A DNA stretch of 26,266 nucleotides from a virus (Duplodnaviria; Heunggongvirae; Uroviricota; Caudoviricetes), in IMG/VR virus record IMGVR_UViG_2563366988_000001. One strand, given 5' to 3'. A program made the position numbers and the translations under genes. The notes beneath the pieces were generated by a model. That model was not told the DNA's origin and ran no database searches. It saw nothing but the letters and a program-made list of their open reading frames with translations. Below, piece by piece: positions 18,635 through 19,486 of the stretch (position 1 is the stretch's first letter; each line of letters opens with the position of its first letter).

Positions 18635-18763
18635 GCTGTATATGCAACGGAGGAAGAAACCTCGTTGCTGGAAGCCTGGAAGAAGTATCGGGTGTTGCTG
18701 AACCGTGTTGATACATCAACTGCACCTGATATTGAGTGGCCTACGAACCCTGTCAGGGAGTAA
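18635..18763 (+). pseudogene. tfa: Tail fibre assembly protein Tfa, 3' remnant (last about 40 codons, no start codon)
   Basis: Frame encodes ...[39 protein letters not shown], matching the lambda Tfa C-terminus; in-frame TGA immediately upstream at 18632-18634. Confidence 0.8.
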
Positions 18764-18777
18764 TCATTGGGATTATG

Positions 18778-18826
18778 CCGCAGCACGTCTTAAGCAAGAA
18801 CGTGCTGCGGTTGGATGCTATTTTTT
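18778..18826. terminator. Hairpin (CCGCAGCACGT-loop-ACGTGCTGCGG) plus T-run between convergent tfa remnant and methyltransferase gene; candidate bidirectional terminator
   Basis: 11-bp stem at 18778-18788 / 18800-18810, then TATTTTTT at 18819-18826; a second copy at 26089-26123 carries compensatory changes. Confidence 0.5.
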
Positions 18827-19486
18827 CCCTGAAGCGGAAAACATTACTACAGTACCTTGAACCTTGGTTTTAACATTCTCGAAATGCTCTGAGAGTATAT
18901 GTGTTAAGCCTTCTTCGGAATCTTTTGTGTTTGAAAAGATGCCTTTCTGATTGTAAATGCGCATCAGTTTTTGACCGAAGCTATTGTGCACAACTCCGTC
19001 ACCAAGAATTGTGGCTCCGTATAGAGTTCCATCGTCAGTTAAGGCCTGCGCCGCATTGCGTATTACACAGCTTTTTGTAGATATATTTCCAGGCAGGCAG
19101 TGAAGAAGGTAAAACATGGAAATGGAATCAAATTGACCATGTAACGCTGCGGGATAAGGTTCAAAAACATCATGGCTAATTTTATGTTTAATTTTTGATT
19201 CCCCAGCCCTTGTAGATGCCGCGTTCAGGCTAGCTTCGTTCAAATCCATTAAAGATATCAGACTACTCTCAGGTACGTGAGTAAGGTAAAACCCAGTTCC
19301 AACACCAATATCCAGATGGTTGTTACCTAAATGTTCCAGAAAGTGTGGAAGAAGGTGTTCCTTTGTAGGACATCCCCATGCAAGCCGATTTGATACTCCC
19401 AAAACCCACCAGTCATAAAGCTTTAGGGTAAGTGGTGTGTAAATTTTAGCCCCATCATCTGTGTTTTTTTTCATTAATTTCACCAT
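18818..19486 (-). CDS. Class I SAM-dependent methyltransferase (small-molecule/RNA type, not an obvious DNA methyltransferase); positional analog of K-12 DLP12 ybcY
   Basis: 222 aa; motif I LDIGVGTGFY and motif post-II DDGTLY; no DPPY/NPPY motif; low-GC gene; K-12 has a methyltransferase-like gene between tfaD and tfaX. Confidence 0.75.
   Translation of the reverse strand: MVKLMKKNTDDGAKIYTPLTLKLYDWWVLGVSNRLAWGCPTKEHLLPHFLEHLGNNHLDIGVGTGFYLTHVPESSLISLMDLNEASLNAASTRAGESKIKHKISHDVFEPYPAALHGQFDSISMFYLLHCLPGNISTKSCVIRNAAQALTDDGTLYGATILGDGVVHNSFGQKLMRIYNQKGIFSNTKDSEEGLTHILSEHFENVKTKVQGTVVMFSASGKK

Follow-up and report, generated by a model that had tools for sequence, protein, structure and literature searches.

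The window, a 26,266-nt stretch of DNA (IMG/VR record IMGVR_UViG_2563366988_000001), is an Escherichia coli lambdoid prophage with head and tail genes, a tail fibre, and a right arm, and the locus is the DLP12 locus of K-12. A tfa-hairpin-methyltransferase segment is present twice in the window, and the two copies are very probably homologous right arms, one from each of two DLP12-family lambdoid prophages that were acquired independently and are arranged head-to-tail at the tRNA-Arg (argU) site. Copy A belongs to the upstream prophage A and copy B to the downstream remnant B. The preliminary description had taken the repeat for a segmental duplication, a reading countered by the argU att core and integrase remnant that sit between the copies, by the existence of both single-occupancy states, and by the orthology of each copy to a different single-copy lineage.

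Arm A and the tail fibre preceding it comprise the following features:
17248-18285, plus strand: distal tail-fibre protein of prophage A, with a C-terminal Peptidase_S74 intramolecular chaperone domain (Pfam PF13884, E = 7e-14)
18644-18763, plus strand: tfa stub (prophage A), reduced to its final 39 codons and the stop; a pseudogene, from alignment with intact Tfa (BEN2908) and K-12 TfaD
18647-19569: block 1 copy A, 923 bp, holding the tfa 3' end, the hairpin, the whole methyltransferase, and ~80 bp upstream of the methyltransferase
18777-18811, plus strand: hairpin copy A, in the 54-bp spacer of the convergent tfa and methyltransferase genes
18818-19486, minus strand: class I SAM-dependent methyltransferase of prophage A, 222 aa, a YbcY homologue (Pfam Methyltransf_12/23/25; RefSeq WP_000239881.1)
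19561-19641, minus strand: dinI fragment, adjoining the third tfa block
19686-19760, plus strand: third tfa C-terminal block, within a frameshifted tfaX-like pseudogene (~19636-19841)
20025-23468, minus strand: alpha/beta hydrolase, in arm A only, in halves 20025-20698 and 22653-23468 (Pfam Abhydrolase_1, Abhydrolase_4)
20699-22652: IS21-family element, 1,954 bp, encoding an IstA-like protein (340 aa, rve domain) and IstB (260 aa; Pfam IstB_IS21)
23499-25077: block 2 copy A, 1,580 bp, holding ompT, its upstream region, and the att core
23655-24608, minus strand: ompT of arm A (Pfam Omptin, E = 1e-130)

Comparison of the window with itself reveals an ungapped direct repeat in which 18647-18954 matches 25959-26266 over 308 bp at 96.1% identity (12 mismatches, E = 3e-143), far beyond a similarity of under 50 bp. 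The copies are 7.3 kb apart, in the same orientation, and colinear gene for gene; copy B runs into the window end, leaving its remainder out of view. Near-identity over more than 300 bp, as first described, is thereby confirmed, and the coordinates given at the time (18635-18960 and 25969-26266) locate the repeat correctly, with left edges displaced by ~10 bp. Seven of the 12 differences between copies A and B fall in the tfa tail (18679, 18684, 18706, 18724, 18743, 18744, 18757) and three in the hairpin apical loop (18790, 18792, 18793). One more lies at the hairpin stem base (18811, G.U in copy A and G-C in copy B), and the last replaces Gln in methyltransferase A with Lys in methyltransferase B (18859), in agreement with the earlier claim of at least one non-synonymous change.

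The junction between the copies and the visible part of remnant B contain four features:
25031-25075, plus strand: att core, an exact match to the 3' 45 nt of tRNA-Arg argU (anticodon loop through CCA)
25091-25684, minus strand: integrase remnant belonging to remnant B, an intD homologue reduced to its 3' ~600 bp and carrying an 11-nt indel
25701-26075, plus strand: tfa pseudogene of remnant B, 124 codons, missing residues 1-32 and an internal 39 (Pfam Caudo_TAP, E = 1e-21)
25959-26266: block 1 copy B, which takes in hairpin B at 26089-26123 and, on the minus strand at 26130-26266, the methyltransferase B 3' end

The att core was located by direct pattern search as an exact 25-mer match, with zero expected by chance, and was compared with argU of K-12 and AST216. 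ARAGORN calls no whole tRNA in the window or in the closed-genome relative L001, because the core is only a 3' fragment of the gene. From its sequence and position, the core would serve both prophage A, as its attR, and remnant B, as its attL; the attR of DLP12 is described as 47 bp of the argU 3' end (PMC6379469). The integrase remnant starts 16 bp past the core, which is the argU-intD spacing, and the same argU-16 bp-intD geometry forms the left end of the complete prophage in AST216, N68, and K-12 DLP12. As in the DLP12 family, an intD-type integrase on the opposite strand adjoins the argU-derived core. This remnant, a pseudogene in RefSeq, is 94.5% identical to intD of prophage A (relative L006) and 94.3% identical to K-12 intD, with homology stopping at 25684; prophage A intD is full-length in relatives. 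The deletion joint between int' and tfa' of remnant B maps to ~25685-25753 (blastn against K-12 tfaD; Tfa alignment), and the union of int' with a tfa that lacks its first 32 codons indicates that nearly all of the second phage was deleted.

DNA past the window edges (argU-intD on the left side of prophage A; for remnant B, the second ompT and attR) was read solely in closed genomes that are 99.8-100% identical over the shared parts, including L001. Gene order in the best-matching closed genomes runs, across arm A, tail fibre, tfa stub, hairpin, methyltransferase (minus), dinI', tfaX', alpha/beta hydrolase (minus), and ompT (minus), and continues with integrase' (minus), tfa', hairpin, methyltransferase (minus), ompT (minus), ybcH, nfrA, nfrB, and cusS. 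The locus has three att copies: the middle core in the window, attL (full argU) and attR of remnant B in the near-identical relatives L006 and L001, respectively. The middle core is perfect, whereas the attR of remnant B in L001 carries 4 mismatches to the argU 3' sequence, counted by eye.

In these closed genomes the homology totals ~2.5 kb and is divided into two blocks (923 bp and 1,580 bp). Block 1 aligns window 18647-19569 with L001 19001-19923 at 97.3% without gaps (blastn) and is colinear with K-12 tfaD-ybcY-tfaX at 96.9%; inside the window, only 18647-18954 of its copy A has a partner. Block 2 aligns window 23499-25077 with L001 19917-21495 at 94.4% (blastn), its partner, from the second ompT to attR of remnant B, lying just past the right end of the window. 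The two blocks abut in the downstream module (L001). In the upstream module, 1,970 bp with dinI', tfaX', and the hydrolase comes between them, a gap that the IS element enlarges in the window. That the homology covers the entire right arm as far as the att core is expected of two related phages, and the chromosome contains ~2.5 kb of direct repeats because both phages share the right-arm moron module. A prophage with a remnant in tandem can thus pass for a segmental duplication when the second copy is only partly in view.

A survey of 5,426 complete E. coli genomes reveals three occupancy states. Remnant B alone, in the order folD-argU-int'-tfa'-methyltransferase-ompT-ybcH beside an intact argU, occupies the locus in 1,039 genomes; prophage A alone, followed by envY-ybcH, is seen in matches H9-H15; and the tandem junction is found in 79 genomes, with closed FDAARGOS_1267 identical (100%) over window 24609-26266. 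TUM13066, which carries the remnant alone, shares its methyltransferase, ompT, ybcH, and nfrA protein accessions with the tandem genomes and is taken to represent the pre-integration state. Over block 1, copy B has zero differences from TUM13066 and agrees with it at all variable sites, and copy A has 2 differences from the prophage-alone genome WP2-W18-ESBL-08, whereas copies A and B differ from each other at 25-27 positions. This near-identity of each copy to its single-copy counterpart, set against the divergence between the copies, argues that they are alleles of two phage lineages joined by integration.

Two further observations concern the flanks and gene content of these strains. The background carrying remnant B lacks envY, and the interval from attR to ybcH measures ~0.2 kb there (L001 21496-21683) as against ~1 kb in K-12 (L004 22105-23091). 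Tandem genomes possess two full-length ompT genes (window 23655-24608; L001 20072-21025), whose products are identical at 314/318 aligned positions, stop included; one of the two adjoins the alpha/beta hydrolase gene, which is IS-disrupted in the window. It is conceivable, though doubtful, that the two intact ompT genes raise the dosage of the omptin protease in extraintestinal isolates bearing the tandem.

We infer that remnant B was the old resident of the site, an int'-tfa'-methyltransferase-ompT element of ~3.5 kb ending in a decayed attR, whose original phage would have been nearly all lost through the deletion joining int to tfa. Later, a complete DLP12-type phage A would have been integrated by an IntD-type integrase, in a Campbell-type event, into argU immediately upstream of B. 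Prophage A would then read, from its left end to the fibre, argU-intD followed by head, tail, and tail-fibre genes, and along its right arm, tfa stub-hairpin-methyltransferase-dinI'/tfaX'-alpha/beta hydrolase-ompT-att core; such an integration would have put the right arm of A next to int' of B. That B came before A is suggested by the frequency of the states, by the decay of its attR, and by the occurrence of the B-alone background; the decayed attR of B beside the perfect middle core fits B being older. In E. coli, phages with a common attB are documented to integrate in tandem (PMC8112680).

An in-place segmental (tandem) duplication, in which a single right arm (tfa-methyltransferase-ompT) was doubled by unequal crossing-over or replication slippage and then diverged, would account for direct copies that are 7.3 kb apart and colinear gene for gene. 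This origin is nonetheless extremely unlikely, since a duplication would not create the att core and the integrase remnant found between the copies, and the junction is not a simple head-to-tail joint. The copies are not each other's closest relatives either, each being near-identical to its single-copy counterpart and 3-6% off its neighbour. Their left edges differ, copy B running into 86 more tfa codons and copy A abutting an unrelated 97-codon ORF, and the 2-kb hydrolase insert of arm A has no counterpart in arm B. A chimeric or collapsed contig joining two prophage ends was also considered, given that prophage repeats often cause misassembly and that the window ends inside a repeat. Its probability is close to negligible: the same junction is present in 79 independent complete genomes, identical in closed FDAARGOS_1267, and the 12 fixed sites at which the copies differ match two separate lineages.

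Alternatively, homologous recombination with the remnant in the methyltransferase or ompT blocks common to both, and not integrase action at argU, could have brought prophage A in. Lambdoid phages do recombine with defective prophages (PMC3945230), and A/B chimeric blocks exist in N68 and FDAARGOS_1296. Entry by a single crossover would, however, leave int'-tfa' of B beside argU at the left end and chimeric blocks on both sides, whereas argU-intD is intact at the left end of the tandem genomes and normal even in the chimera N68; in addition, the middle att core is perfect, copy A is purely A-type, and copy B is purely B-type. This route is therefore very unlikely, and integrase-mediated insertion of prophage A at argU next to remnant B stays the preferred reading.

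Once in tandem, the repeats can delete the DNA between them, as initially proposed and as natural A/B chimeras bear out. The closed genomes N68 and FDAARGOS_1296 have the arm A architecture but end in the decayed remnant attR and the envY-less flank, and both are devoid of int'-tfa'-methyltransferase of B. The SNP pattern switches from A to B inside ompT, at 24465-24508 in N68 and at 23730-24015 in FDAARGOS_1296, and a single switch fits 89/90 informative sites in each. The different switch points argue for independent crossovers, presumably by homologous recombination between the direct repeats. These deletions used the ompT block, whose partner lies past the window, and not the tfa-methyltransferase block. 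N68 carries, in addition, a B-type patch in block 1 (18679 to ~19048) yet retains a normal argU-intD left end. Matches of the N68 type, reflecting a hydrolase-ompT arm that is common at the locus, number 746 genomes at a coverage of at least 80%, a figure made too high by pieces that were joined across envY; in the best 25 matches listed, only 2 genomes match as one unbroken piece at 99.7% or above.

A chimeric query (A-specific fibre flank, repeat, and B-type methyltransferase/ompT joint) recovered no deletion through block 1 in the tandem background. Four genomes matching this query are only 97.4% identical, and the one inspected, SCU-102, is envY-positive; we read these four as a natural phage variant with a contiguous methyltransferase-ompT arm and not as derivatives of the tandem lineage. 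Set against other A copies, window copy A is distinct at just two sites, 18998 and 19001, which both have the B state, a weak hint of a short gene-conversion patch; the same haplotype occurs in the unrelated BEN2908 prophage, making the donor ambiguous. Inversion of the intervening segment, also proposed at the outset, is impossible because the repeats are direct, and no inverted repeat of at least 30 nt is reported in the window. The ~2.5 kb of direct repeats makes the locus unstable, as the two natural deletion recombinants illustrate, and constitutes a hazard for short-read assembly.

The repeat start coincides with the right-hand joint of a replaced tail-fibre cassette, marked by the fibre gene at 17248-18285, whose RefSeq counterpart in L001 is labelled "tail fiber domain-containing protein". 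The tfa stub of prophage A bears the RefSeq label "tail fiber assembly protein, missing N-terminus", and the tfaX-like region likewise receives pseudogene calls in RefSeq. Alignment reveals that the three tfa fragments all begin at the same residue, (I)ATEEE(T/R)SLLEAW, which is also exactly where the internal 39-residue deletion of the copy B tfa ends. The third C-terminal block, noted earlier and now placed at 19686-19760, is 88% identical to copy A over 75 nt and 83% identical to copy B over 72 nt. The common start residue and the S74 chaperone in the fibre upstream of copy A make it reasonable that, as proposed in the preliminary description, these blocks record past cassette swaps. With an intramolecular S74 chaperone in the fibre, there would be no need for a separate Tfa, which could be why a 39-codon stub is all that is left.

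The tfa-hairpin-methyltransferase-tfaX' module is also found in K-12 DLP12 and in the unrelated BEN2908 prophage at ompW, where tfa is intact, and occurs in 3,812/5,426 genomes at up to 4 places per genome. It is a doubtful but conceivable proposition that the 75-bp tfa block, the hairpin, the ybcY-type methyltransferase, and the second tfa block form a self-contained "moron cassette", passed from one lambdoid phage to another by homologous recombination at its flanking tfa blocks, with the hairpin insulating it. Such a cassette, if real, would explain the presence of the module in ~70% of E. coli genomes behind unrelated tail-fibre cassettes and at different att sites, and its invariant hairpin would insulate it transcriptionally from late-operon read-through.

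In the copy A hairpin, a GC-rich core stem of 11 bp is accompanied by a single bulged base, 3 apical pairs, and a loop of 4 nt; the 81-nt context of the hairpin has a folding energy of -35.5 kcal/mol (z = -5.3). The core stem (18778-18788 / 18800-18810) is the same in copies A and B. Among 16 copies from related loci there are four haplotypes; the stem variants are those of K-12 and EC12, each breaking a pair, and one G.U/G-C base change, with no compensatory double substitution in the stem among these copies. Pairing is thus retained because the stem is unchanged and not through compensatory substitutions, so that the earlier account stands for the preserved pairing and for the changes in the loop and stem base, but not for compensatory change. 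No Rfam family matches the hairpin or any other part of the window at gathering thresholds. The consensus scan does not call the hairpin a terminator. A T6 run begins 10 nt past the stem on the plus strand, and the minus strand has none. The most likely role of the hairpin would be to mark transcript ends where the convergent tfa and methyltransferase genes meet.

Several observations concern other parts of prophage A. Between the S74-type tail fibre and the tfa stub lies a 97-codon ORF (18331-18624; WP_000355601.1) with a hydrophobic C-terminus and no Pfam match, which stops ~20 bp ahead of the repeat start. Just downstream of the hydrolase gene, a palindrome (19969-20004) with a 14-bp stem and a T-rich tail on the minus strand is the sole terminator-like site called in arm A by the consensus terminator scan. 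The hydrolase gene itself is split by the IS21-family element, flanked by a 5-bp target duplication (CTTAT); the insertion at 20699 is absent at that position from the best-matching complete genomes. Inside the large gene for the tail-fibre N-terminal domain (14576-16957), two tandem 189-nt units (15077-15454) that are 82% identical probably represent a repeated fibre-shaft domain.

In AST216 (NZ_AP043625.1, L005 23271-33993), a 10.7-kb satellite-like element resides inside the major capsid gene of the same prophage, at the equivalent of window 1350-1359; the capsid gene of the window (1088-2140) is intact. The element encodes a tyrosine integrase, an Icd-like protein, a primase, an SSB, a small terminase, and two Abi proteins, together with its own major capsid and decoration proteins, and is flanked by a short direct repeat of ~9-10 bp, GCCGAAGCA. 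It may be a phage satellite that targets the capsid gene of its likely helper.

The invertible segments of Mu (Gin/G), P1 (Cin/C), and e14 (Pin/P) need inverted repeats and a serine invertase. They share with the argU locus repeated tail-fibre and tfa C-terminal sequences near tail-fibre genes. An invertible tail-fibre switch of this type was considered and rejected for the window, where all tfa blocks are on the plus strand, inverted repeats of at least 30 nt number zero, and no invertase is annotated; with all its blocks direct and no annotated invertase in the arm, the argU locus is not of that class.

K-12 DLP12, arranged argU ... intD ... tfaD-ybcY-tfaX-appY-ompT-attR, has the same attachment site, an att core from the argU 3' end, and intD 16 bp from the core. 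The right-arm order is also common to both, running tfa, hairpin, ybcY-type methyltransferase on the opposite strand, tfaX-like fragment, ompT, and attR, with K-12 ybcY in the place equivalent to methyltransferase A. Identity to K-12 is 96.9% both for window 18644-19765, against tfaD-ybcY-tfaX, and for window 23605-25077, against ompT-attR; both arms are colinear with K-12 at 92-97%, and Pfam matches to Caudo_TAP, Methyltransf_12, and Omptin support the right-arm order. Unlike K-12, which has one DLP12-family element, the present locus has two. Prophage A is complete, with head, tail, lysis, and replication genes (read in part from relatives), and carries the alpha/beta hydrolase where K-12 has appY, while remnant B measures ~3.5 kb compared with 21 kb for K-12 DLP12 and is without tfaX and appY. 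The ybcY gene is intact here and a pseudogene in K-12.

The arrangement is ordinary, its elements and mechanism being already known; its scientific weight is small, and it opens no new question. N68 and FDAARGOS_1296 resemble the mosaics made by relaxed recombination between temperate phages and defective prophages, as presented in PMC3945230 and PMC2327257, in switching inside sequence of 94-97% identity; they differ in that a chromosomal deletion and one conversion-like patch are seen here in place of gene gain by a replicating phage. The shared-attB tandem prophages of STEC and EPEC (PMC8112680) likewise consist of two lambdoid elements head-to-tail with an att copy between them and repeats that permit rearrangement, but at this locus the downstream partner is a tiny remnant, the site is argU, and there is no sign of the prophage-in-prophage attB mechanism stressed in that paper.
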